Part shown: in pieces, positions 2,018-36,306 of the stretch
Position numbering within the stretch: position 1 is the stretch's first letter
Layout of the letters: every line of letters begins with the position of its first letter
From: Leptonemataceae bacterium
GTDB taxonomy: Bacteria; Spirochaetota; Leptospiria; Leptospirales; Leptonemataceae
Assembly (NCBI GenBank): GCA_965227295.1
Contig: OZ245742.1
Span: 3,712,001 to 3,776,000, forward strand
DNA length: 64,000 bases
Direction of reading: 5' to 3'
The notes under the pieces: model-generated
The model's database searches: none
What the model saw: only the letters and a program-made list of their open reading frames with translations
Told to the model about the DNA's origin: nothing
Made by a program: the position numbers and the translations under genes

Positions 2018-3993
2018 CACTCGCCGCACTGCTGGCTCTGGCCCTGCCGGTCCAGGCGTTCGTCTCCCAGGATGCCCCGCTGGCCCAGACCCCCGAACCG
2101 CCGCCGGAGCAGACACCGGAACCGCCCGCCGAAAACGTCCATCCCCTGGACGGGCCCATTCACATCTCCGGGAGCTTCGGCGAGTACCGCAAGTTCGGTC
2201 GTTATCACCACGGTCTCGATTACAAGACGTTCAACCGTAACGGCTTGCCGGTACGGACGCCCTTCGACGGTTTCGTAGATCGTGTGCATGTCTCGGATCG
2301 TGGTTACGGCTTCGGTCTCTTTCTCACCGCGCCGGACGGAACACGCACCACCTACGGTCACCTCAACGATTTCGACTGCGATCAACCGGACCTGGAGCTT
2401 CTGCGCCGTGCGATGCGCCTGCTCACATTTCGTCGCGGCGTGATGGTGGGCATACCTCCGCGTTGGTTTCGCTTCAAAGCGGGAGACTGCATTGCCCGGA
2501 GCGGGGAGTCGGGCTCGGGGGCGCCGCACCTGCATTTCGAGGTTTTCCAGAACGGCCGGTTCATCGATCCGTTGTCGCTCCAGGGCCTGCACGTGGGGGA
2601 CCGCGAGGCCCCGCATCTGCTTAATCTGTACGTAGATCGCGCCGGTGGGGAGATACTCCGTTTCCCTGTGCGGCGCGTCGTGGAAGACCCGGAAACGAAA
2701 CCACAAGAACTCAGCGACCGTGACTTAGTGCGCGGCGGCACCGCAGTGGATGCCTCGCTGTCGCGGGGCGATCGACCGCCACCGGAGACCGTTCGTTACG
2801 AAATCGATTCCAATGCGGAAGACCTGCCGGAGCTCCGGGCCGGCGATCGCGTGCGGTTGCTGATCGGAGCTTATGATCGAATGGCGGCGCGAAATCGCAA
2901 TGGCGTGCGCCGGCTGAAGCTCGTCGTAGACGGCCGTGAAATCTATCGTCAGGACATCGACGCGCTGAGTCGCGGCGATCTCGTGCGATCCAGTACCGTC
3001 TACCATACGGCCCGGACGGTCATCGGCAACGAGTACGTGTATTTGTTGTACCGTGGGAGCGGCCGCTTCACGGCCGGGCAGCCCATCGAGGTTACCGTGA
3101 GCGATGCATCGGGCAACCAGGCGGTGCTGGACGTGCGCTTGCCGCTTTCCGGGGAATCCGGGCCGTCCCGGGAATCGCGCCGGGAAGAGAAACGCCTGCG
3201 GCCGGAGGTCCCGTTCCAGACCGTGCCGGCCGGCCGCACGACGAAGCTCCAGGCCGGCGACGCTGACGCCAGGATGGAAGTTCGCTTTGATGCGCGCAGC
3301 CTGCACGAGACCGGCGAAGCGCGCTTCTTTCGATTGAACGCGGCTCCGGAAAATACGCGCGGCCAGTTCACGCGCCCCGAGGAGGGCGTTTCCGGGGCAG
3401 GGAAACGCGCGGGCATTTACTCTCCGACGGGGCCGGTCTTTGTCCTCGAAGGGCGGGACCTGTTTTATCGCAGCGGGGCCTGGGCGACGGCCGAATTCCC
3501 GGACGTGCCGGAAGTCGACGGCCGCGTGGCGTTGTACGTTTATAATTATACTCTGGAACGATGGTTGCTCGTGGCCTTCCCATATCGCCGCCGTGCGACG
3601 ACCGACGATCGTCCCGGGCGTCTGTACTATCGTTTCAACATGCGTTACGAAGGACCCCTGGCGCAACTCCGCGACCACAGCCCGCCGCGGCTGCTGGACA
3701 AACCGCTCTGGGACGATCCGACGATCACCAACGAGCGCGGGACCGAGTTCGTGCGCGAGTACATGATCGCCGACGCGGGCAGCGGCTTCAGCAGGGCCGA
3801 CTCGCAGGTTCTGGTCGACGGCCGGCCGGTGCCGTTCGAGTACGTGCGCGACCGCGCGGTGATTCGTGTGGCGTTGCCGAAGTCCCTCGTGCCGCAGCAC
3901 GGGGTGGTGATCTCGGTGCGCGTGGGGGATCACGGCGGTAACACGGCGCCGTGGTTTTTCGATTTCCTCGAACCGCCCGCCGCGACGGATTGA
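1936..3993 (+). CDS. M23 family metallopeptidase (true start uncertain, probably nearer 2010)
   Basis: GSFGEYR..HHGLD, YGHL and SGSGAPHLHFE motifs. Confidence 0.85.
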   Translation: MDSRQIQRRNAVPRDPGRTLLLPRNRVALAALLALALPVQAFVSQDAPLAQTPEPPPEQTPEPPAENVHPLDGPIHISGSFGEYRKFGRYHHGLDYKTFNRNGLPVRTPFDGFVDRVHVSDRGYGFGLFLTAPDGTRTTYGHLNDFDCDQPDLELLRRAMRLLTFRRGVMVGIPPRWFRFKAGDCIARSGESGSGAPHLHFEVFQNGRFIDPLSLQGLHVGDREAPHLLNLYVDRAGGEILRFPVRRVVEDPETKPQELSDRDLVRGGTAVDASLSRGDRPPPETVRYEIDSNAEDLPELRAGDRVRLLIGAYDRMAARNRNGVRRLKLVVDGREIYRQDIDALSRGDLVRSSTVYHTARTVIGNEYVYLLYRGSGRFTAGQPIEVTVSDASGNQAVLDVRLPLSGESGPSRESRREEKRLRPEVPFQTVPAGRTTKLQAGDADARMEVRFDARSLHETGEARFFRLNAAPENTRGQFTRPEEGVSGAGKRAGIYSPTGPVFVLEGRDLFYRSGAWATAEFPDVPEVDGRVALYVYNYTLERWLLVAFPYRRRATTDDRPGRLYYRFNMRYEGPLAQLRDHSPPRLLDKPLWDDPTITNERGTEFVREYMIADAGSGFSRADSQVLVDGRPVPFEYVRDRAVIRVALPKSLVPQHGVVISVRVGDHGGNTAPWFFDFLEPPAATD

Positions 3994-23757: not shown

Positions 23758-23957
23758 GGGGCCATCCTGGGGTGGCCGGGGAAGGTGTCAACTACCGAGG
23801 CGCCGAGGTCGCCGGGGATGAAAGCCGGAGGGCCGGTGCAAGCCCCCTTTAAATGATGCGTGCTTTCTTTTTCTGCTTGTACTTTTTCCGGCACGCGACA
23901 TAATTGCTTCAGGCATTCCTCGGTTCGACCGATGTCGTTGATAGAGGAATTTCTCGC

Positions 23958-24395
23958 ATGGCTCTATTCGACAACACGTCCACAATGCGCTCGCTGCAAA
24001 TGCTCGAAAAGGGTATGGATGCGGCGATGACCCGGCGCAAGGTGCTCGCCAACAACATCGCCAACGTGGATGTGCCGCACTTCAAACGCTCCGAGGTCAT
24101 CTTCGAGTCACAGCTCGCGCGCGCCGTCGACCACGAACGCTCCGTGAAGGCCGATCCCCTGGCCATGCGGACGAACCATCCGGCGCACTTCGAAACCCGG
24201 CGTCACGAGGACTGGCGCGACGTGGGGCCGCAGATTCATCAGGACTACCTCACCAGCATGCGCAACGACGGGAACAACGTCGACATCGAAGACGAGGTGG
24301 CGAAGCTCACCCGCAATCAACTGCATTACTCGCTGATGGTGGATCGGGTGGGGAGCTCGTTTCGCCTGCTGAACAGCGTCACGCGACTCGCGTAA
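23958..24395 (+). CDS. flgB: Flagellar basal-body rod protein FlgB
   Basis: ANNIANVDVPHFKR and RNDGNNVDIEDE motifs. Confidence 0.97.
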   Translation: MALFDNTSTMRSLQMLEKGMDAAMTRRKVLANNIANVDVPHFKRSEVIFESQLARAVDHERSVKADPLAMRTNHPAHFETRRHEDWRDVGPQIHQDYLTSMRNDGNNVDIEDEVAKLTRNQLHYSLMVDRVGSSFRLLNSVTRLA

Positions 24396-25467: not shown

Positions 25468-25558
25468 AATTTTTTTCTTAACGAGACATAATTTTTTCCT
25501 TGTACTTTTGCCCTGGTAACTTAAGGTCCGGCCAACATAAAAACAGAGGCCGAAGACC

Positions 25559-27262
25559 ATGCCCGATTTTCTCACAAACATTTTGAATCAGCTCCAGGAA
25601 CTCTGGGGGAAACTCGACAACACCAAGAAGATAACCCTCGGCGCCGTAATTGCCGCCGTGATTGTTGCCTTCACCGCCATGGCGTCGTTTTCGTCCAAGC
25701 CGGCGAAAGTTCCGCTGTACGAAGACCTGAACGCTCAGGATTTCGGTTCGATCACGTCGGCGCTGCAGGCGATGGGTTACTCCTACTCTGCCTCCGGCAC
25801 CACGGCGATTTACGTAGAATCGGACGAGCGCCAGGAGATCATCACCAAACTCGCCCAGGATTCCCTGATTCCCGCCGGGGTGGAGGGTTACGAGATCTTC
25901 GACATGTCGCGCTGGGACGAGACGACGTTCGATAAGAACGTCAAGTTGCATCGCGCCATCAAAGGTTCGCTGGAAACGATGTTAATGACGCTGGACTTCG
26001 TGAAACGCGCGAATGTGAATCTGGCGATTCCGGAACGGAACAACTTCCTTACGGACAGCGAACCGGTGAAGGCGTCCGTTGTTCTCTCGCTGCAACCCGG
26101 TATCGAAAAGGTCAGCCGCCGACAGGTGATGGGCATTAAGAACCTGATCTATCGTTCGGTGCCGCGCCTGGAGCGGGATAACATCAGCATCACCGACGAA
26201 GGCGGCAAAGAGTTCGTGGAACCGGATGAGATTGATGAAGCGCAGCGCGAACTCGATCTCGTCGAACGCAAAAAGGAGTTCGAGTATCGCGAAGAACGTC
26301 GCTGGCGTGAAGAGATTCGCGGCCGGTTGCACGAGTTCTATCCGGAAGATCGCATCTCCATCATTCGCGTCGCCTTTACCGTAAACTGGGACGAGGTCGA
26401 AGAGAAACAACATCTCGTGGCGCCCGTCGAGAAAACGCCGGAGAATGCCGAGACCCCGTATCCGGACCGCGAGATTATGGAGGACGGAACGATCACCGTT
26501 TCGCGCAACCGTCGTCAGGAACGTTTCCGCGGCAACGGCTTCACCCCCGGCGGACCCACCGGTACCGAACAACAACTGCCGCCGGGTTATCGCGATCTCG
26601 ACTACCAGCGTTCCGAGTACGGAAACAACGACGTCATCGAAAACTTCGATTATAACCGCATCGAAAAAGAGATTACGCGTCAGCCCTGGGAAGAGCGTTC
26701 GCGCTCTATCGCGGTAGCCGTGGACGGCACCTGGACCCGGGGGATTCCGTATCAGAAAGAAGACGGCTCCTGGGCCTACGAACGCACCTACGAACCGCCG
26801 GCGCAGGAGGAACTGCAAACCCTGGAACGTTTGCTGAAGGCGTCCCTGTTGTTCAAAGGCGCGCGCGGCGACCAGATCGAAGTGCGTCACTTGAAGAAAG
26901 ACCGCTCGGCCGAGTTTGCCGCGGAAGATGAAGCACTGACCCGTGAGCGTTTTATCCGCACTCTGTTGATCGTCTCGGCGGTGGCTCTCGCGGCGATGAT
27001 CTTCGTCTACTTGCTGTATCGTGCCATCAAGAAGGAGATCGCCCGGCGGCGGCGTCTGCGCGAAGAAGAACTCGCGGCACAGCAACAGCTCATGCGCGAA
27101 GCGGCCCTGCGGGTCGCCGACGAGGGCGCGGCGGAAGTCGAACTCTCCGTGGACGAAAAGGCCCGGCGCGAGATGCTCGAAAACGCCATGAATCTGGCCC
27201 GGGAAAAACCCGATCAGGTGGCGAAGCTGATCCGCACCTGGTTGTCCTCGGACGAAACGTAA
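25559..27262 (+). CDS. fliF: Flagellar M-ring protein FliF
   Basis: Two TMs; GYEIFD, A.VNLAIP, ASVVL and RGDQIEV motifs; C-terminus PDQVAKLIRTWL. Confidence 0.96.
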   Translation: MPDFLTNILNQLQELWGKLDNTKKITLGAVIAAVIVAFTAMASFSSKPAKVPLYEDLNAQDFGSITSALQAMGYSYSASGTTAIYVESDERQEIITKLAQDSLIPAGVEGYEIFDMSRWDETTFDKNVKLHRAIKGSLETMLMTLDFVKRANVNLAIPERNNFLTDSEPVKASVVLSLQPGIEKVSRRQVMGIKNLIYRSVPRLERDNISITDEGGKEFVEPDEIDEAQRELDLVERKKEFEYREERRWREEIRGRLHEFYPEDRISIIRVAFTVNWDEVEEKQHLVAPVEKTPENAETPYPDREIMEDGTITVSRNRRQERFRGNGFTPGGPTGTEQQLPPGYRDLDYQRSEYGNNDVIENFDYNRIEKEITRQPWEERSRSIAVAVDGTWTRGIPYQKEDGSWAYERTYEPPAQEELQTLERLLKASLLFKGARGDQIEVRHLKKDRSAEFAAEDEALTRERFIRTLLIVSAVALAAMIFVYLLYRAIKKEIARRRRLREEELAAQQQLMREAALRVADEGAAEVELSVDEKARREMLENAMNLAREKPDQVAKLIRTWLSSDET

Positions 27263-27375
27263 ACTGTTAGCGGCCGCCGGTTAAAGAAATGCCACGGCGG
27301 CCGCCTTTGTTCTGATCCTCGTTCTGACGCCATTGGTCTTCGGCCGGCACAGTACGTAGGGAATGTGAGATCCTG

Positions 27376-27400
27376 GGGGGCAGCGATGCCCCCTTTTTTT
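27376..27400 (+). terminator. Intrinsic terminator downstream of fliF
   Basis: GGGGGCA-GCGA-TGCCCCC followed by T7. Confidence 0.8.
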
Positions 27401-27429
27401 CGTTGGGCGTCTTTGCGATCATACGAGTC

Positions 27430-28749
27430 ATGAACGTCCAGGAACAAATTCAGTTCGCCCGTTTCTTCGTAATCGAAGCGGCCGCAGAGATCGGAGCCGA
27501 CGTTCTGGCTTATCTGAATCGGGACGAAACCAAAGATCTAAAGCGTTGGTTGATGGATCGAACTCCGCCTTATCCGGAATTCAGGGAAGGTCTGCTCATC
27601 TGGTGGAACAAAGTGGCGCTGGAGGAATCGAACGCGATCGATCTTACCGCCGCGCTCGATCCGGAACTTCGACGGCGATTGTTTCCAGACACAAAGCCTG
27701 CGCTGCGCGAGCGACGAGACGATGGTCTCGCCGAACTCGGCCCATTGATTCAACAGCGTAACGCTCATCATCCCGGCGAACCAATTGAGGAACTGAGCGT
27801 CGACGAACGTGCGCGGCGGGAAATGTTTGAAAACTTTCTAGCGGCGTTTGTAGAGCAATCGGGGGCGGCGCTGGAACGTCTCGATCGGGCCGCGGCCGCG
27901 ATGAGCGCGGAATACCTGGAGAGGCAGGAGCGTCGCTTGCCCGCGCAGGACCTGCGCCTGGAGTTCTTGCGGGGAGTGGCCGCGCGTCTGGGCGTGGAGC
28001 AGACCGAACAACAGCGAAGTTTTGTTCGGGGATTGCATGATCGTGAAGTGCGACTTGTATTCGCGTACTTGAACCATTGCGATATCAGGCCAGCATCCAG
28101 GGGACTCTTGCGTTCCGGCGAGCGAAGCAAGGATGCCGTCCAAAGATTGCGCCGGGTGTATCGTCGCCTGTTCGCGGGGAGGCGCGCTTGCAGGCCGGTG
28201 CGGGAATGGGAGATAGGTTCGGAAGATGAGTATCGGCCGCTTGCGTTTGGCACGGGTAAGGACGGTGCTTTATACACGCTGGAAATTTTGCATGATGATC
28301 GGGCTGCTGTGAAGGGTATGATCGAGCGTTTGTCGCCCGATGGTGAGCGGGTCAGGGTTGTGCATATCGCCGGGACAGCGGAGAGGTATGCACAGGACTT
28401 ACGGGTTACGGAAGACGCCCTTCATATTCTATTTGGCCCGCGCGGATATCTGGATCACGGTGATGACGATGCGGAACCGGTATACTCGATCGCGCGACTG
28501 AGTCATGATGGCTCCTTCCTGGATGAGAAAATCCTTTCGGAGGATGAGAACATTCACTCTGGCATGGATCGGCTTGTGCCGGATGAGCTACAGTTTTATC
28601 GATCGTTCACGCCAATGCCCGAGCACTTGCATCGCCTGATGTTTCGCGACACCGACGGGCGCCGATTTAGCTTTGAGCGTTTTGTTGTGCGGGGCGATTT
28701 TCTGGCGGCAAGAATCGGCGGACGCATCCTGATCTACGCCCTGAAGTGA
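27430..28749 (+). CDS. Hypothetical protein: FliG-N-like N-terminus, FliF-C-like peptide and a beta-rich C-terminal region
   Basis: N-terminus aligns by eye with FliG residues ~10-65; ELSVDERARREMFEN is 13/15 identical to the local FliF peptide ELSVDEKARREMLEN. Confidence 0.7.
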   Translation: MNVQEQIQFARFFVIEAAAEIGADVLAYLNRDETKDLKRWLMDRTPPYPEFREGLLIWWNKVALEESNAIDLTAALDPELRRRLFPDTKPALRERRDDGLAELGPLIQQRNAHHPGEPIEELSVDERARREMFENFLAAFVEQSGAALERLDRAAAAMSAEYLERQERRLPAQDLRLEFLRGVAARLGVEQTEQQRSFVRGLHDREVRLVFAYLNHCDIRPASRGLLRSGERSKDAVQRLRRVYRRLFAGRRACRPVREWEIGSEDEYRPLAFGTGKDGALYTLEILHDDRAAVKGMIERLSPDGERVRVVHIAGTAERYAQDLRVTEDALHILFGPRGYLDHGDDDAEPVYSIARLSHDGSFLDEKILSEDENIHSGMDRLVPDELQFYRSFTPMPEHLHRLMFRDTDGRRFSFERFVVRGDFLAARIGGRILIYALK

Positions 28750-28757
28750 TGTATGCG

Positions 28758-29225
28758 TCATATCTCTTCCGGTTCCATGTACTCCGCATACGCATGCAGT
28801 CGATCTTCCAGCGGCCCCAGCAAATGCCGCCGCGCGTCTTCGATTTCTTCCGCGGTCCATTCGTTATCGCCGGCGTTCTGGATCTCATCGCGTTTGTTCA
28901 TCGATACGTTGCGCAGGATGATCTCACGTAGTTCCGGTGCCGCACCGAAACACGCCGCCGCGATTGTTCGGCCGTCCAGAGGGCGTAACAAATCCTGCAA
29001 TGTTCGTGCGTGAAGTTTTTGCAAGGCCGCAAAGGGTAAGCGAAAGAAAGTTAGCGATTTTGCGAGCGGCGCCGCGCTTTCCAGGAGACCCGCGAATTCC
29101 CGGGCGAGTTCCGGAGACAGCCGGCGCATTACATCATGGAGCACATCCGCCGCGGGTCGCGGGGAGGGCGGCTCGCCGAGATTTAACAGGGCTTCGATTT
29201 CTTCGGGGGAGAGGAATTCGGTCAC
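28758..29225 (-). CDS. Small protein: FliM/FliY-type N-terminal CheY-binding motif fused to a FliG C-terminal-like domain
   Basis: Begins MTEFLSPEEIEALL; the remainder aligns by eye with FliG-C (DPELAEE/SPELARE, IQRVLREVD/LQDLLRPLD, KIFKNMS/IILRNVS, DVED/EIED). Confidence 0.72.
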   Translation of the reverse strand: MTEFLSPEEIEALLNLGEPPSPRPAADVLHDVMRRLSPELAREFAGLLESAAPLAKSLTFFRLPFAALQKLHARTLQDLLRPLDGRTIAAACFGAAPELREIILRNVSMNKRDEIQNAGDNEWTAEEIEDARRHLLGPLEDRLHAYAEYMEPEEI

Positions 29226-29689
29226 GTATCACGTTTCCGCTGAATTTCCTGAAGCACGGCCACGTCCCACTGGTCGATCTCGCGCGATGTGGACTTGCTG
29301 CGAATCAAAGAGGCGATTCCCATGTACGGAATCATTACACCGTCGACTTCCTTTACAGCGCGATCCGCAAGTGCTTCTTCGTAGGTGACGTCCCATGCGC
29401 TGATCGCAACATCCACTTCAATTTCATCTGCGATCTTCAGGACAATGTGCTCTACGATGTCCTGCGCCAGGATCGGCTCCGGCAATTCCGGGAAAAGCTT
29501 TTCGAGCGCGGCCACCGTGCGCTTTAGATTTTCCGGGGTGTTTCGAATGAGAATATCGTAATCGTTCGTGGCCCGGACGTGGCCCTGGAGAGCGCAGGCA
29601 TAGGCGCCGGTGAACATATACTCTACTTCGTGGCTATTGAAAACAGTGGCCACGTCCGAGAGTGTGCGCCACGGATCATTCGGCGCCAT
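29222..29689 (-). CDS. Nucleotidyltransferase (AbiEii/DUF6036-like Pol-beta fold)
   Basis: GAYACALQGHVRATNDYDILI motif; LIRSK...R.ID..D motif. Confidence 0.8.
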   Translation of the reverse strand: MAPNDPWRTLSDVATVFNSHEVEYMFTGAYACALQGHVRATNDYDILIRNTPENLKRTVAALEKLFPELPEPILAQDIVEHIVLKIADEIEVDVAISAWDVTYEEALADRAVKEVDGVMIPYMGIASLIRSKSTSREIDQWDVAVLQEIQRKRDT

Positions 29690-29695
29690 GACGCC

Positions 29696-29884
29696 TCACA
29701 ACTCCCGGGCCGCGCGGGTGCGGACGAATTCGTCGTGTTCTTCCCAGGTGCGGAACTTGTAGACTCCGCGCGGCTTTTTGTACGGGCGGAGCCGTTCCAT
29801 CTCGGCGACCAAACGATGCATGCGCCGGTAGTTTTCGATGACGTTGTTTGGATCGGGGGCGTTGGGACCTGTAATCCGCTTCAC
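29696..29884 (-). CDS. Small protein upstream of the nucleotidyltransferase (putative TA partner)
   Basis: 62 aa with PRGVYKFRTWEE; 6-bp gap to the NTase gene. Confidence 0.6.
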   Translation of the reverse strand: MKRITGPNAPDPNNVIENYRRMHRLVAEMERLRPYKKPRGVYKFRTWEEHDEFVRTRAAREL

Positions 29885-30442
29885 GCATCTATCAGATGCG
29901 CGGAAATTTCGGTGTCAAGCTGAATCGGCGGGGCCCGCGTGTTGCGGATTGACAGGATTTGTAGTGCCGGCACACTTTTCGGCAGGATTTCCCCGGAATG
30001 GATGACGCGATGTTTGATCTCACTGCGGTACTGGTAAGCAGCCTGGCTGCGCTGACTTGCTTCCGGGTTTTCCGCGTGATCCATCGGATCCGGCGCCTGG
30101 TTCCTGTGGCCGTGCGCTGGTTCCGGCCGTCTTCGCTCTACGCGCGTCGGCATCGCTAATCGACCTGGTTCATCTTCCTCGGACTATCGCTGGCGTTGGC
30201 CGCGGCGGTGTTTTTGGTCGGTCTCGCATTGGAATGGTTCGTCGGTGATCGTAAGATTGTCGAGCGGCACTTCTGGACCTTCCTGCTCGCCGTGAGCGCG
30301 ACGCCGATTGCCTGGTATGCCTGGTTTGTGCGGGACCGCAACCGCTCAGAAGAGCTGAAGAACGACAGGTTCAAGAACATTCGCGAGAGTTTCTACAAGC
30401 TTCAGGAATGGGCGGTCAGTGACAACGAGGGGCAGGTGACCA

Positions 30443-32426
30443 GTGCGCCGGGCAAAGCCCGATGTTTCTGATAAGGTGAAAGTCCATATGAAGTAAAGTT
30501 TAGCGAACAACTTCTACCGAGTGTTGCGTGGAAGCGGGTAACCGCCACACGAAGCGTACACAGGGAAGCATGCAGGCCGTAGGGGAGTCCACACTCCCGG
30601 AAGCTGTTGAGCCTCGTAAAATGCCATAGATGCAGACGGTGACATCATTGGTCAGATGGAAACCAGCACAAAGGAATCGTTTTAGCGAGATTCTGGAGGT
30701 CTGTCGGGGTCGCTTGAGCGCGGCATGTATGCAGAGAAACATCGTGGAACCCGGGAGACCCCGTTGGTTCCTTCGACGATAGCGAAGGTAATTCTGACCG
30801 AATGAACAAGGAAGAATGATGATCAACGGGGAGTCGGATCAGCCCATAGTACTCAGAGGGCGGGAGAGCCGTCCACAGAATCGAATGAAACTCGAATGGA
30901 GTTTCGACGGGTTCGGTCTTCGCGTGCGATGCGCGATGATCGGGGAAGGGGCTGACGAAAGTACGCAGCTCGCAGAGTCAACATCAGCCGGACGGCAGGA
31001 TCGGAACAACTGATGCAAACCTCACTACGGGCAATAGCAAATAAAGCGAGGAGGAGTAAGAAACATCTGTTTCGTAATCTGTATGGGATGCTCAACCAGA
31101 TGAATCTCGAAGATTCGTTCGCAGGAATGAATCGCCGGGCGGCTCCGGGCGTGGACCGTGAAACGTTTCGCGACTACGAAGCGAACCTTACGGAAAATGT
31201 CGGGGATCTGGTGGAACGCTTAAAACAGAAACGATACCGAACAAAACTGATTCGCAGGGTCTTTATCCCGAAAGCGGACGGAAAACAACGTCCGCTTGGA
31301 TTGCCGGCCCTCGAAGACAAACTGGTACAAACATGCGCGACGCGTATCCTTGAAGCGATCTATGAGCAAGACTTCCTGTCGTGTTCGTATGGTTATCGGC
31401 CGAACACCGGTCCGCGTGAGGCTTCGAAGACTCTGAGTTCAACTTTGAGTCCGGGGAAGCTCGGCTGGATTGTGGAAGCCGACATCAAGGGTTTCTTCGA
31501 CAACATTGACCATGATTGGTTGATGCGAATGCTGGAGCAACGAATCGATGATCGGGCCTTTCTCGGTCTGATTCGCAAGTGGCTGAAAGCAGGCGTGCTG
31601 GAGGTAAACGGTCAGGTCTCGCGCCCGACCGCTGGTACTCCTCAAGGCGGCGTGATCAGTCCGGTTCTGGCGAACGTCTATCTTCATTACGTACTGGACC
31701 TCTGGTTCGAGAAAGTGGTGAAGAAGCACTGCAAGAGACCGGCCTATATGTGTCGATACGCGGACGATTTTGTTTGCGCCTTTGAATCCAAAGACGATGC
31801 GCTGAAATTCTATGCGACGCTTGGAAAACGTTTGCGAAAGTTTGGTCTGGAACTGGCGCCGGAAAAGTCAGGAGTGAAAAGTTTCGAGCGCCCGGGCTTC
31901 CGCGCGAAGTTCAATACCGGGCGTGAGGCGTTCGTATTTCTAGGCTTTGAATACCGCTGGGCTCGTTCTCGAAAGGGGTTCTGGTGGGTTCCGCGTCGCA
32001 CCGCTCCAAAGCGATTGCATGCGTCGATCCAGAATGTGAAGCAGTGGATTAAAGCGAATCGGCATCTACCCATGCGCAGGTTCTTCAATCTTCTGAACTC
32101 CCGGCTGCGTGGATACTATAACTATTATGGCGTCCAATGCAACTACAAGAGTATACGAAGCTTCTACTATCAGGTGGAAATGAATCTGTACAAGTGGCTC
32201 AATCGGCGCAGTCAGCGCCGGAGTCTGGACTGGCAGGGGCTGAGGGATCTGATGGCGCACTACCGGATCGAAAAACCGCGCATCATGGAACGACCAGTAT
32301 CTCAGTTGCGACTTACTCTGAATTGACTTTATGTGGAAGCGAGTGCTTTCGAAGAGCCCGGTGCGAGAATACCGCACGCCGGGATCTGTGCGGGGGCGGC
32401 CGGGCAACCGGCCGTTCTACCGCGAC
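30443..32426 (+). mobile_element. Group II intron (IIB-like), 1984 nt
   Basis: 5' GTGCG at 30443; domain V GAGCCCGGTGCGAGAATACCGCACGCCGGGATC near 32354; domain VI with a bulged A, ending ...CGCGAC; EBS1 TGGTCA (30649-30654) complementary to IBS1 TGACCA (30437-30442). Confidence 0.92.
31013..32326 (+). CDS. ltrA: Group II intron reverse transcriptase/maturase (no HNH endonuclease)
   Basis: APGVD, IPKADGKQRPLG, SYGYRP, DIKGFFDNI, GTPQGGVISP and RYADDF motifs; X domain LRGYYNYY; the protein ends without an En domain. Confidence 0.96.
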   Translation: MQTSLRAIANKARRSKKHLFRNLYGMLNQMNLEDSFAGMNRRAAPGVDRETFRDYEANLTENVGDLVERLKQKRYRTKLIRRVFIPKADGKQRPLGLPALEDKLVQTCATRILEAIYEQDFLSCSYGYRPNTGPREASKTLSSTLSPGKLGWIVEADIKGFFDNIDHDWLMRMLEQRIDDRAFLGLIRKWLKAGVLEVNGQVSRPTAGTPQGGVISPVLANVYLHYVLDLWFEKVVKKHCKRPAYMCRYADDFVCAFESKDDALKFYATLGKRLRKFGLELAPEKSGVKSFERPGFRAKFNTGREAFVFLGFEYRWARSRKGFWWVPRRTAPKRLHASIQNVKQWIKANRHLPMRRFFNLLNSRLRGYYNYYGVQCNYKSIRSFYYQVEMNLYKWLNRRSQRRSLDWQGLRDLMAHYRIEKPRIMERPVSQLRLTLN

Positions 32427-32836
32427 CGGCGCTCTTTCAACTCCGCGACTACCTGGTGATGGATCGGGGGCTGATTCCGGAGGATCTGAAAGAATATCGC
32501 AGGCAGTTCGCGAAGATGGCGCGGGAGTTTTTTGCGGTGATTCTGAAAGATCGGGCGATTTATGATCGGAATTATCGTTTGTGGGAGGAGGCGAATGGGA
32601 TCGGGGTCGGGAAACGTGCGGGGAGCGGCGCGTCCGGGAACCCGGAAGGCAACGATCTTTCGATCGTCCACATGGATAAGATCAGCGAGGCGTCGGTTTC
32701 GCTTTCGCATGAGGATCATTATCTGCTCCAGGCGTTTCGCGGGCAGCGGCTGGTGGACGTGCCGAAGAGCGCGCCGTTTCGGGCGATGGAGCGCATTGTC
32801 CGGGAGAACGGCGTGGCGATCGGCGATTTGCGCGAG

Positions 32837-32876
32837 GCGGAGTTGCAGCACGCGGAGTTGCAGCACGCGGAGTTGC
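32837..32876 (+). repeat. 15-bp tandem repeat encoding pentapeptide units
   Basis: GCGGAGTTGCAGCAC twice, plus a partial third copy. Confidence 0.85.
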
Positions 32877-33001
32877 CGGAAGCGCGGCTGGGCGTTCGCG
32901 TAGCGACGCGGACGACACCCGCCCCGGCCGATACACGCAAAAATCATCGTCCCACAAAATATTGATTGACCATGCGTATTTTTTGATGCAATCATTCATG
33001 A

Positions 33002-35149
33002 ATGTTCCGGCAAGAAACACTTTTGATACTATGTTGTCTGTTCCTCCAGTTCTTCTTTATGAATTGCGGCGGGGTCGGTATTTTCGATCCTCTGGAAGCC
33101 CGTCCTGTGGGCGACCTCCATTCATCCACATCGAGGGACTTGAAGCCCGCGTCGCCTAAAGCCGTAAGTAAGGACAGGCTCACTGACGTCCCCTATTCGT
33201 CAGTGGTCCGAATGGAATTTGCTTTTGGAGCCGGAGAGTACAGTTGTTCCGGTACTTTGATCGAAGGTGCCGACGGAGATACCTATCTCCTGACAGCCAC
33301 TCACTGCCTTTTTGATCCCCATTCCAAGAACTGGCTGAATGAAGTGGTCATCTGTGTCGCCGCTTATAGCCGGACCGGGTGCAAAGGGGGGAGGTTCGTT
33401 CGGCCGATTGAGTACGTTTCTATTTTTACGAATGCTCAGCGTTCCGAAGATACCTATCCAGTGCCTCCAAACCACCGTCCCGAAATGGAAGTGTACGATC
33501 AGGCCATTGTTAAACTCAAGCAATCTCCGCAAGCCCGGGCACTGCGGCCTCTATTCGGGCTGAACCTGGACCAACCACAGATTCGAATGTTAGGTTATCC
33601 CGATGGCGATGATTTTCATGCCGGGACCATGTACGAGATTCAAACCAACCTGGTTTTTGCCATCGATGAAGAAAGGCAGGCGCTCCTCAGTCAACCCGCC
33701 TTCGCCGAGGGGGCGAGTGGCGGCCCCTGGATCTATCGTGATTCGAAGGGTGCTCATCGAGTGGTCGGGTTGCTCAGCAGCGGTATTCCCGGCGAAGGCG
33801 AGACCTACGAAATTTCCGGCATCTTCGGTGATAATCAAGAGCTTCTCTATGAATGCGCTACCGGAGGCCAGGGCGCGCCGTGTAAGCCGCAGCGCAGAGG
33901 CGATGGTAAGATTACACAGATGAACGATTACACGATCCAGGAGACCGGCTATTCTGTGGGAGGATCCATGATCTACCTCCAAAACGGCAGCATGGCTGTT
34001 CTTGCGGTGCGCCGGGCTCAACGGGCCTGCACGGGAAAATCCTACTCAGGATCCGGAGTCGAGCTTTCTTTTTTGCGCATCGACGATATGCCGGCGACAA
34101 TGCAGCGGCAATGCTTTGATCTCGGCAGGTGGTCCGGCCGGGATGCAAGCGATATGTTAGTCGCCAGGCTGGAAGCCGCGGACGCTTCGGAGAACTATTA
34201 CCTGATCACTGCCAACGGGACTAACGACAATCGAATCCGCCTGCACACCTTTGCCATACAGGATACGGGCCTGGTTCCTCTGGAAGAGAAGATCTGGGAT
34301 GCCGGTGAGATAGACAAGAACGTCCGTCTCCTGCAGACCGCGAACGGTTTCGCCTTCTTACGCCGCCGAAAAGGTAAGTTGTACCTGAAATCCTGGGATC
34401 TTTCATTGGAAGGGAAACTCAAGGAAGGAAAACCGAAAGCTCTCACAGGACCGAAAACAACAGCCTTCGACGCGATAGCTCTGACGGCTCCGGCACCGCC
34501 GGAAATCGGATCCTCTTTCATCAAACCTCAGGTCCTGGTGGCCGCCGTCATTGGTGGAAAGATAGAACTCTTGAGTTACTTGCTCCATGATGGGACCTGG
34601 GTCAATGGTCCTCAGTTGAAGACCGGCATTGTGGCGGAGGAGGCCCCACGGCTCGTGCAGATGGACAACGGTATGATCGCCCTCGGCTTCCTCGGGAAAG
34701 ACAGACAGGCTGCCTTTGAACTCCTTCGGGTTGACTATCGTACCTGGAATGCCGGGCACTATTTTCTCGAACGCGTCGAGGACAGTCGAACCAATGTCGT
34801 GCGTGGTTCCAAAGTGCTACAGGGGCCGGGTCTGGCGGACCTCGGCAACGGCATCCTCGGCGTTGCCGTGGCCTTGACAGACCGCACACTGCTGAACACG
34901 TTTGCCATACCTGCCCACTCGGTTCCGAGCCCTCGGAAATTAGGGGAGGCGAACATGCCGGCCTGGAACGAGTCGAACATTACGCCGCTGTACTTCGGTT
35001 CTCCTGCTCGCCCGGAGGCTACGACGATTGCTGTGGTCTATTTCGATAAGAGCAGCGGCTCCACCGACTTTCGCCTGCGTACCCTGTCGGTAGAGGGCGC
35101 GTCCGGTGTGCGTATGGATACCATCAGCTACCATTACATGTACCGCTGA
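33002..35149 (+). CDS. Trypsin-like (S1) serine protease lipoprotein with a large C-terminal beta-rich domain
   Basis: Lipoprotein-like signal (FFFMNC); CSGTLI, LTATHC, YDQAIVKL and GASGGPW motifs; lower GC than the backbone. Confidence 0.8.
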   Translation: MFRQETLLILCCLFLQFFFMNCGGVGIFDPLEARPVGDLHSSTSRDLKPASPKAVSKDRLTDVPYSSVVRMEFAFGAGEYSCSGTLIEGADGDTYLLTATHCLFDPHSKNWLNEVVICVAAYSRTGCKGGRFVRPIEYVSIFTNAQRSEDTYPVPPNHRPEMEVYDQAIVKLKQSPQARALRPLFGLNLDQPQIRMLGYPDGDDFHAGTMYEIQTNLVFAIDEERQALLSQPAFAEGASGGPWIYRDSKGAHRVVGLLSSGIPGEGETYEISGIFGDNQELLYECATGGQGAPCKPQRRGDGKITQMNDYTIQETGYSVGGSMIYLQNGSMAVLAVRRAQRACTGKSYSGSGVELSFLRIDDMPATMQRQCFDLGRWSGRDASDMLVARLEAADASENYYLITANGTNDNRIRLHTFAIQDTGLVPLEEKIWDAGEIDKNVRLLQTANGFAFLRRRKGKLYLKSWDLSLEGKLKEGKPKALTGPKTTAFDAIALTAPAPPEIGSSFIKPQVLVAAVIGGKIELLSYLLHDGTWVNGPQLKTGIVAEEAPRLVQMDNGMIALGFLGKDRQAAFELLRVDYRTWNAGHYFLERVEDSRTNVVRGSKVLQGPGLADLGNGILGVAVALTDRTLLNTFAIPAHSVPSPRKLGEANMPAWNESNITPLYFGSPARPEATTIAVVYFDKSSGSTDFRLRTLSVEGASGVRMDTISYHYMYR

Positions 35150-35289
35150 GGCGCGGCCCATCATCCAGCATGATTTTTCATCTTGCGCGCCGCGATCCAC
35201 CCTGATAATCTCGGCTGCACGGGAAATTCTGGACTCCCGCCGCGTTTCTGCCGATACTAAACGAAGCGGCAATTCGCCTGCATCCGCCT

Positions 35290-36306
35290 ATGCTCCAGTC
35301 GAAAAAACAGCAGCTCTCCGGTCGCCAGAAGGCGGCGATCTTCCTCGTGACCCTCGGTCCGGAGATCGCTTCCGAGATCTTCAAGCACCTGCGCGAGGAC
35401 GAGGTCGAGACGCTCACTTTCGAAATGGCGCGGATCGATAAGATCACGCCGGAGGACAAAGAGTCGGTCCTGGTTGAGTTCAACGAACTCATGATGGCCC
35501 AGGAGTTCATCACGACGGGCGGTATCGATTACGCCCGGGAAGTTCTGGAACGCGCCCTCGGTACTCAGAAGGCGATCGACATCATCAACCGCCTCACGTC
35601 GTCGCTCCAGGTCCGGCCGTTCGACTTCATTCGCCGCACGGACCCGCAGCATCTTTTGAACTTTATCCAGAACGAGCACCCGCAAACCATCGCTCTGATT
35701 CTCTGTTACCTCGAACCCCAGAAGGCCGCGCTCATTCTTTCGTCGTTGCCGCACCAGATCCAGGCCGACGTCGCCAAGCGCATCGCCACGATGGAACGCG
35801 TTTCGCCGGACGTTCTGCGCGAAGTCGAACGCGTTCTTGAACGCAAGCTCTCCACGCTCGCTTCGGAAGATTATACGACGGCGGGTGGTATCGACGCGGT
35901 GGTCGAGGTTCTGAACCTCGTAGACCGCGGCACGGAAAAGACCATCATCGAGGCGCTGGAAGAGGAAGACCCGGAACTCGCCGAAGAAATCAAAAAGAAG
36001 ATGTTTGTCTTCGAAGACATCGTCCTGCTCGACGACCGTGCCATTCAGCGGGTCCTCCGCGAGGTCGACAACCAGGAACTCGCGAAGGCCCTCAAGTCGG
36101 TCGACGCCGAGGTCCAGGAAAAGATCTTCAAGAACATGTCCAAACGCGCGGCCGCGTTGCTCCGCGAGGACATGGACTTCATGGGTCCGGTGCGTTTGAA
36201 AGACGTCGAGGACTGCCAGCAGAAGATTGTGAACATCATCCGCAAGCTGGAAGATGCCGGCGAGATCGTCGTCGCGCGTCACGGGGAAGAAGAGCTGGTG
36301 GTTTGA
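35290..36306 (+). CDS. fliG: Flagellar motor switch protein FliG
   Basis: GRQKAAI, GGIDYA, EHPQ, GGIDAV, MFVFED, NMSKRAA and GPVRLKDVE motifs. Confidence 0.98.
   Translation: MLQSKKQQLSGRQKAAIFLVTLGPEIASEIFKHLREDEVETLTFEMARIDKITPEDKESVLVEFNELMMAQEFITTGGIDYAREVLERALGTQKAIDIINRLTSSLQVRPFDFIRRTDPQHLLNFIQNEHPQTIALILCYLEPQKAALILSSLPHQIQADVAKRIATMERVSPDVLREVERVLERKLSTLASEDYTTAGGIDAVVEVLNLVDRGTEKTIIEALEEEDPELAEEIKKKMFVFEDIVLLDDRAIQRVLREVDNQELAKALKSVDAEVQEKIFKNMSKRAAALLREDMDFMGPVRLKDVEDCQQKIVNIIRKLEDAGEIVVARHGEEELVV

Follow-up and report, generated by a model that had tools for sequence, protein, structure and literature searches.

In a 64,000-nucleotide stretch of the genome of a Leptonemataceae bacterium (assembly GCA_965227295.1, contig OZ245742.1, positions 3,712,001 to 3,776,000; hereafter the window), the flagellar genes fliF and fliG are separated by an insertion that holds an open reading frame (ORF), here called ORF X (27430..28749, + strand, stop codon included). 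ORF X encodes an orphan protein of 439 amino acids with an ATG start, and in its interior it carries what is, judged from its sequence, a copy of the first FliG-binding helix of FliF. The explanation that we favour, with a probability of roughly one in three (about 0.35), is that ORF X is a genuine gene, although unique to its lineage, and that its product is a diverged FliG/FliF-derived chimera in which the FliF-like helix would target the N-terminal domain of the canonical FliG protein (FliG-N). Three rival readings and a more speculative one are weighed below; the probability that the favoured reading and the three rivals leave over goes to functions that we have not thought of.

The FliF-like block, ELSVDERARREMFEN (27790..27834, + strand), occupies amino acids 121–135 of ORF X and corresponds to helix 1 of the FliF tail; the original block, ELSVDEKARREMLEN, lies at 27140..27184 on the + strand within fliF (25559-27262, + strand; Pfam YscJ_FliF, 8.8e-44). 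The two blocks are identical at 13 of 15 residues. An earlier reading of the window made from its letters only (hereafter the sequence-only reading) had given the ORF, the block positions and this identity, and all of these were found as claimed. Across the genome, scanned as 25,957 stop-to-stop frames with a minimum length of 100 amino acids and 5,377,725 residues in all, the FliF 15-mer matched at 10 or more of 15 residues at two places only, FliF itself and ORF X. When all 425 15-mers of ORF X were compared with the genome, the best non-self match was the same block, and unrelated matches reached a ceiling of 11/15, attained by two 15-mers. A profile built from 25 distinct FliF tails aligned with ORF X by hhalign over 28 columns (amino acids 114–141; 27769-27852), with an E-value of 3.4e-7 and a probability of 93%. 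At the level of sequence, the block resembles FliF beyond chance.

In relatives the block is nearly invariant. The pattern ELS[VIL]DE[KR][AY]RRE[ML]LEN is present in 30/30 FliF orthologues, and the variant with Arg, found in 7 of the 30, is identical to the ORF X block at 14 of 15 residues. A query with amino acids 100–170 of ORF X found a match in 38 of 41 other genomes of the family, the top-ranked ones in FliF-sized frames; among the matches listed, no protein other than FliF carried the block. In the crystal structure PDB 5TDY, which holds the FliF tail of T. maritima together with FliG-N, chain A aligns with the matching stretch of FliF, and in the alignments to FliF orthologues and to 5TDY the block retains the hydrophobic residues (Met, Leu/Phe and Phe/Leu). 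The C-terminus of FliF is described in PMC8956890 and PMC7355467 as a pair of helices that bind FliG-N and co-fold with it. The block is internal in ORF X (amino acids 121–135 of 439), not C-terminal, and ORF X has no YscJ_FliF match; the sequence after the block is unrelated to FliF. A complex prediction of FliG 1–105 (with a 36-row alignment) and ORF X 108–170 gave a score of 0.02 against a mark of 0.32, and with controls not folded it is evidence in neither direction.

The open frame that contains ORF X is 473 codons long and has 59% GC; in ORF X the GC content at codon positions 1, 2 and 3 is 0.69, 0.42 and 0.60. In sliding windows its own frame scores best for coding over most of the ORF, with a weak stretch at amino acids 181–240. 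The region 25500-30469 is covered without differences by Logan contigs from two sequencing runs that belong to a single study. Most genes in the region have weak Shine-Dalgarno sequences, so that the lack of one says little here. We regard as very improbable the possibility that the resemblance arose by chance or that ORF X is a spurious frame and not a gene: the 13/15 match lies far beyond the genome background and falls in the gene adjacent to fliF, the E-value against the FliF-tail profile is as given above, a frame of such length is expected about 0.04 times per genome (an estimate from base composition), and the own frame scores best at both ends of the ORF. What speaks for chance or a spurious frame is that ORF X has no homologues and no family, that its coding score is weak at amino acids 181–240, and that its protein-language-model recognition value of 2291 falls just below the mark reached by 91 of 100 proteins of known families.

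Codon by codon, the two blocks agree at 7 positions, use synonymous codons at 6 (for Leu, Ser as TCC/AGC, Val, Ala, Arg and Glu) and encode different residues at 2; in all, the ORF X block departs from that of the neighbouring fliF at 12 of 45 bases. This confirmed the codon count of the sequence-only reading, in which 6 of the 13 identical residues used different codons, including Ser TCC versus AGC. Its view that the block is not a recent DNA duplication also held, with the ORF X block sharing 24–34 of 45 bases with each of 30 fliF genes. Separately, a recent tandem duplication of the host fliF-fliG junction was rejected, as there is no fliG DNA similarity beyond background and the GC content at third codon positions (GC3) is unlike that of the host flagellar genes.

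When 12 random base changes were introduced into the fliF block, at least 13 residues were kept in 3 of 50,000 simulations. Because the simulations so rarely keep 13 residues, the block was under constraint at the protein level while its bases diverged. This constraint need not have acted in ORF X: a captured piece of an unsampled, diverged fliF would look alike, and thus the synonymous differences are no proof of selection on ORF X. The earlier claim of protein-level conservation is therefore upheld for the block, and does not extend to a demonstration of selection on ORF X itself. The Ser codon is AGC in ORF X and TCN in 30/30 fliF genes, which speaks for an independent history of the ORF X block. 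The edges of the block are sharp; the 60 bases flanking it are identical to fliF at 15–21 of 60 positions, the random level. The block is 87–93% identical to FliF, and the rest of ORF X is at most about 25% identical to FliG, while canonical FliG is highly conserved, with 99% identity across the genus and about 86% across the order. A block so close to FliF, in a protein otherwise so far from FliG, favours by inference the conserved canonical FliG-N as its partner.

Two stretches of ORF X, on either side of the block, are weakly FliG-like. Amino acids 8–63 (27451..27618, + strand) align with FliG 13–68 (BLASTP E 0.15; hhalign P 0.015–0.017). The same register had been proposed by eye as FliG-N in the sequence-only reading; it was reproduced, but the likeness proved weak, since 3 of 150 shuffled sequences, and as many of 200 segments from real proteins, scored at least as high. 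The 41% base identity over the N-terminal codons is ordinary, the best windows of twelve unrelated genes having 41–45%. Because the stretch also aligns in a competing register with FliG 205–301 (P 0.0045), it is better called FliG-type ARM-like than FliG-N.

The second stretch, amino acids 160–251 (27907..28182, + strand), remotely resembles the linker between the N and middle (M) domains and the middle domain itself (FliG 96–190); this colinear likeness, which goes beyond the observations of the earlier reading, fits a FliG-derived scaffold. Against an order-level profile of 46 full-length FliG paralogues of the order, full-length ORF X had an hhalign score of 27.9, with residues 159–332 aligned to FliG 95–246. 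This score was reached by none of 95 real segments of 439 amino acids (maximum 20.7), none of 58 global shuffles (maximum 20.9) and none of 54 local shuffles. The piece comprising amino acids 150–260 scored 27.1 (P 0.0015; 160–251 aligned to FliG 96–190), a value reached by 0/234 real segments and 0/234 shuffles, so that overall 0/675 controls reached the observed score with the order-level profile. An independent phylum-level profile, made from 26 FliG orthologues of other orders, keeps the register (ORF X 195–217 to FliG 122–144). With hmmsearch run without filters, two colinear pieces (13–38 to profile positions 18–43, and 158–183 to 94–117) were returned, with an E-value of 0.027 for one comparison. 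Against profiles that each represent one paralogue class, P was 0.015–0.2. We take these alignments as suggestive of a FliG ancestry for the ORF X scaffold, to which we would give slightly better than even odds. The FliG-like signal does not amount to membership of the FliG family.

The C-terminal part of ORF X, amino acids 252–439 (28183..28746, + strand), has no family match: Pfam gives none, the hhalign lists contain no FliG_C alignment, and hhalign detects no kinship with FliM or FliN, nor with the chimeric switch proteins found in relatives. To the sequence-only reading, the C-terminal half had looked like an unrelated beta-rich domain. Single-sequence AlphaFold2 models had a mean confidence (predicted local distance difference test, pLDDT) of 36.5 for the full length and 47.8 for amino acids 1–175, too poor for a fold search.

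In the reading that we favour, the scaffold would be a very diverged FliG-like protein, N-domain-like at amino acids 8–63 and linker/middle-domain-like at 160–251, with the copy of FliF helix 1 set between the two. The FliF-like helix, together with a replacement second helix, would dock on the N domain of the conserved canonical FliG, and the docked protein would either compete with FliF at FliG-N or sit beside it. The outcome would be that the C-terminal domain of ORF X is brought to the rotor, or that FliG is held away from the MS ring. The setting counts in favour of this reading, with the switch-like ORF Y as convergent neighbour and rearranged rotor proteins in relatives (both described below). 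ORF X may dock on the motor or interfere with it; both binding to FliG in trans and an effect on motility are what we infer from such a layout.

The same arrangement could work in cis, which was the first option of the sequence-only reading; its other option was a competitor for FliG binding. The FliF-like helix would then fold onto the FliG-N-like helices of ORF X itself, giving a single-chain FliG-N/FliF-C domain independent of FliF, and the FliG-M-like part would stack into the C ring or cap it, bringing the C-terminal domain along. The parts do stand in the order N-like stretch, FliF-like helix and linker/M-like stretch, which is colinear with FliG, and the helix lies where helices 5–6 of FliG-N would be; fusions of FliF to FliG assemble, as described in PMC10941966, PMC6079021 and PMC7355467. 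We nevertheless consider this self-complementation rather unlikely. A partner as diverged as the protein's own N-terminal part would not be expected to hold the block at 13–14 of 15 residues, the likeness to FliG-N is weak, the FliM-binding EHPQR motif is lost, and the AlphaFold2 models stay below a pLDDT of 50.

A number of observations weigh against the favoured reading of ORF X as a chimera that targets FliG-N. The second helix of the FliF tail, with its conserved Trp (LIRTWL; L-x-R-T-W-L), is missing from ORF X; the sequence-only reading had seen that this helix was not copied, and the local profile alignment indeed stops at amino acid 141. The N-terminal likeness to FliG is weak, at the level of sequence, and its register is ambiguous. 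In the middle-domain register 10 of 36 conserved FliG columns are identical; EHPQR is reduced to its His, with Gly at the position of the motif Arg, and the Gly-Gly pair is down to one Gly. One local shuffle scored 26.8 with the order-level profile, close to the observed 27.9, and the independent profile lowers the score to 21.5 (P 0.014), which 2 of 163 real segments attain and none of 163 shuffles. The Pfam and NCBIfam models of FliG (FliG_N, FliG_M, FliG_C and TIGR00207) and of FliF miss ORF X, whole or in pieces, even at E 10, and Pfam FliG_M finds five places in the whole genome, ORF X not among them.

The searches for homologues point the same way. A word-indexed search of 5.8 billion proteins returned the query only, an exhaustive phmmer search of 1.84 billion representative proteins returned ORF X itself only, and ORF X is present in 0/40 related genomes. 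Within its own genome, ORF X matches only itself (phmmer at E 10); Pfam, NCBIfam, PADLOC and PHROGs contain no family for it, and PDB sequences give no match at E 10. The ESM Atlas has no usable match for the whole protein. For amino acids 1–170 it offers unnamed helical clusters and, at 0.92, clusters of NACHT N-terminal helical domains, to be read as a lead only, and no FliG cluster. ORF X is a sample of one; being a single sequence without relatives, it leaves the case to one 15-residue block and weak profile signals.

Further points on this side concern the origin and expression of the gene. The synonymous pattern of the block could be inherited from a donor fliF. GC3 is 0.73–0.75 at amino acids 121–200, against 0.50–0.67 in the other windows of ORF X, a peak that hints at a mosaic origin. 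A strong terminator-like hairpin (27375-27404, + strand; 8 pairs, 6 of them G-C, followed by TTTTTTT) ends 26 bases before the ATG of ORF X, and a search of the + strand upstream of the ORF revealed no sigma-70-like promoter. Another hairpin, seen by eye, is the first after the fliF stop, with a G+C-rich 10-bp stem at 27271-27305. With two hairpins behind fliF, the fliG of this strain, lying 8 kb downstream, would have to rely on a separate promoter.

Nearly as likely as the favoured reading is that ORF X is a functionless mosaic. A piece of the 3' end of fliF, from an unsampled relative, would have been caught in frame by an ORF of the island as the fliF-fliG junction recombined; having diverged earlier under purifying selection on FliF, the peptide would be a fossil, whatever looks FliG-like would be noise or a relic, and the protein would have no role in the motor. 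Such a capture accounts for the sharp block edges with flanks at random identity and for the local GC3, which is host-like and unlike most of ORF X, and the synonymous pattern is equally expected from the divergence of fliF orthologues, given the number of bases that they share with the block. It also fits a fliF-fliG gap that is variable in the genus (0.43, 1.1 and 8 kb), the orphan status of ORF X, and a terminator with no promoter found behind it. It fits less well with a 473-codon frame that has coding periodicity on both sides of the block, which is unexpected for junk, or with the AGC Ser codon, seen in 0/30 sampled fliF genes. It also calls for a capture that keeps the frame deep inside a long ORF, which seldom happens, and the colinear FliG-like stretch and a switch-like neighbour, ORF Y, would be two more coincidences.

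The insertion that holds ORF X spans about 8 kb (27263..35289) between fliF and the canonical fliG (35290..36306, + strand; Pfam FliG_N, 1.1e-38), which is thus about 8 kb away from fliF. Upstream lie flgB (23904-24395), flgC, fliE and fliF. In comparisons with two genomes of the same genus, DNA similarity ends at the fliF stop and picks up again at the fliG start, and the gap between the two genes is about 1.1 kb and about 0.43 kb there, versus about 8 kb here. The inserted genes have a GC3 of 0.59–0.71, against a genome median of 0.76 and 0.73–0.80 in the flanking flagellar genes. Because of the similarity break and the lower GC3, we conclude that the insertion is foreign, and unique to this genome among those searched; it is horizontally acquired, mobile DNA inside a flagellar operon. 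No direct repeats or tRNA were found flanking the ends of the island. The fliF-fliG junction is a recurrent insertion spot in the genus. The gap of about 1.1 kb (L002) carries a 183-amino-acid acetyltransferase-like ORF on the opposite strand (3381-3932, – strand).

Besides ORF X, the insertion holds a run of three genes on the minus strand, namely a 62-amino-acid ORF, a 155-amino-acid ORF with a weak nucleotidyltransferase-like match, and ORF Y. It also holds a 210-amino-acid ORF and a group II intron (30440-32427; Rfam RF02005 at 30479-30720) with a reverse transcriptase/maturase (31013-32326; TIGR04416, 7e-109). The contig depth of the intron is about three times that of its flanks, which indicates that it is multicopy in the genome, and a contig joint skips 30437-32755. 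The last of the inserted genes encodes a 715-amino-acid protein (33002-35149, + strand) with an N-terminal trypsin-like domain (Trypsin_2, 6.3e-6); it has a weak LmuA-like PADLOC match (1.9e-5), and its long C-terminal part has no family.

ORF Y (28758..29225, – strand; 155 amino acids) is convergent to ORF X and is the last gene of the three-gene run, its GTG start overlapping the stop of the preceding gene. It matches Pfam FliG_C at 3.9e-8 (34 bits; cut-off 23.3) and aligns by hhalign to FliG 196–316 (E 3e-8). The protein begins with LSPEEIEALL, a FliM-type N-terminal motif that we take to be the CheY-binding motif. A motif pattern, which was written after ORF Y had been seen and whose count is descriptive only, occurs in four frames of the genome, FliM, two LSQ[DE]EIDALL frames and ORF Y, and is N-terminal in all four. 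The motif is kept in two relatives of ORF Y, P0003 (72% identical) and a protein of genome G013 (33% identical); a search of genome contigs for a related locus confirmed none. It is conceivable, though we think it less likely still than self-complementation, that ORF X and ORF Y form a two-gene 'switch-mimic' island, in which the FliF peptide of the one and the FliM-type motif and FliG_C domain of the other serve as decoys on mobile DNA. If so, the decoys would plug into both the rotor and the chemotaxis input, braking, remodelling or hijacking motility.

Other rearranged switch proteins occur in the clade. A 528-amino-acid chimera with FliG N and M domains and a FliM-like C-terminal part is encoded on a 219-kb contig of a same-genus genome (L115:1213-2799, – strand). 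In another genus, a 661-amino-acid chimera (L116:1868-3853, – strand) starts with the FliM-type LSQGEIDSLL, ends with FliG N and M domains and adjoins a FliM-like gene. The genome under study has three FliG paralogues, and it also encodes, outside the window, a 'mini-FliF' (G000:C1:2591593-2591985), one of a set of small proteins, found in several relatives (L007 and L008), that have one transmembrane helix and a FliF-like two-helix tail with the Trp. The 'mini-FliF' genes sit away from the flagellar genes, and their products could be partners for the extra FliG paralogues. From the chimeric switch proteins and the small FliF-tail membrane proteins, we conclude that rotor parts have been reshuffled in this clade. 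An accessory pair in the genome under study, also outside the window (G000:C1:679468-681494; L012, L105), consists of a FliM-like ORF in a 291-amino-acid frame beside a 425-amino-acid frame that matches FliG_M at 55 bits. In eight genomes of the sister family (for example L095-L102, L069 and L070), a 327-amino-acid FliG paralogue, 25–28% identical to canonical FliG, directly follows fliF, and the canonical FliG, 85–86% identical to FliG here, is encoded elsewhere.

The joint between the FliF tail and FliG-N keeps the C ring attached to the MS ring and fixes the stoichiometry of the two at 1:1. In the literature searched we found no natural mimic of the FliF half of this joint; a soluble protein bearing the FliF helix would serve directly to probe rotor assembly or to inhibit it. 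If the favoured reading is right, mobile DNA could tune or disable motility through peptide mimicry, and even as a fossil ORF X would document the reshuffling of rotor parts in the clade.

A literature search for FliF mimics, or for phage or island inhibitors acting on FliG, returned nothing relevant, and we know of no peptide-mimic motor modulators of this kind. Accessory proteins that act on FliG do exist, the EpsE clutch and the YcgR brake, and ORF X is likewise proposed to be a non-structural protein acting on the rotor through FliG; to our knowledge, EpsE and YcgR neither copy a FliF peptide nor target the FliF-binding site of FliG-N. Duplicated FliG proteins are present in Borrelia (FliG1 and FliG2). 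In comparison with the FliG proteins and paralogues of spirochaetes, ORF X is weakly colinear with the N domain and the linker/middle domain and adjoins fliF, whereas it matches no FliG model, has lost EHPQR and Gly-Gly, and has no FliG_C that we could find. Kinship with the divergent 327-amino-acid FliG of the sister family was examined and rejected (hhalign P 0.49), as was kinship with the two FliG/FliM chimeras described above (BLASTP E 0.5). The 'mini-FliF' tails have the complete helix pair with its Trp, and their helix 1 is less FliF-like than the ORF X block.

Set beside the FliF tail in its complexes with FliG-N (PDB 5TDY from T. maritima and 5WUJ from H. pylori), the ORF X block is the same element, helix 1 of the tail. 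In FliF the tail forms the C-terminus of a membrane protein of the MS ring, whereas in ORF X the block lies inside a soluble 439-amino-acid protein that has unrelated sequence in place of helix 2 with its Trp and lacks a YscJ_FliF domain. The FliF-FliG fusions of Salmonella and Vibrio share with ORF X the presence of a FliF tail and FliG-like sequence in one polypeptide. In these fusions, as described in PMC6079021, PMC10941966 and PMC7355467, full-length FliF is followed by full-length FliG and working rings are formed; ORF X, unlike them, carries one FliF helix only, set inside a degenerate FliG-like frame.

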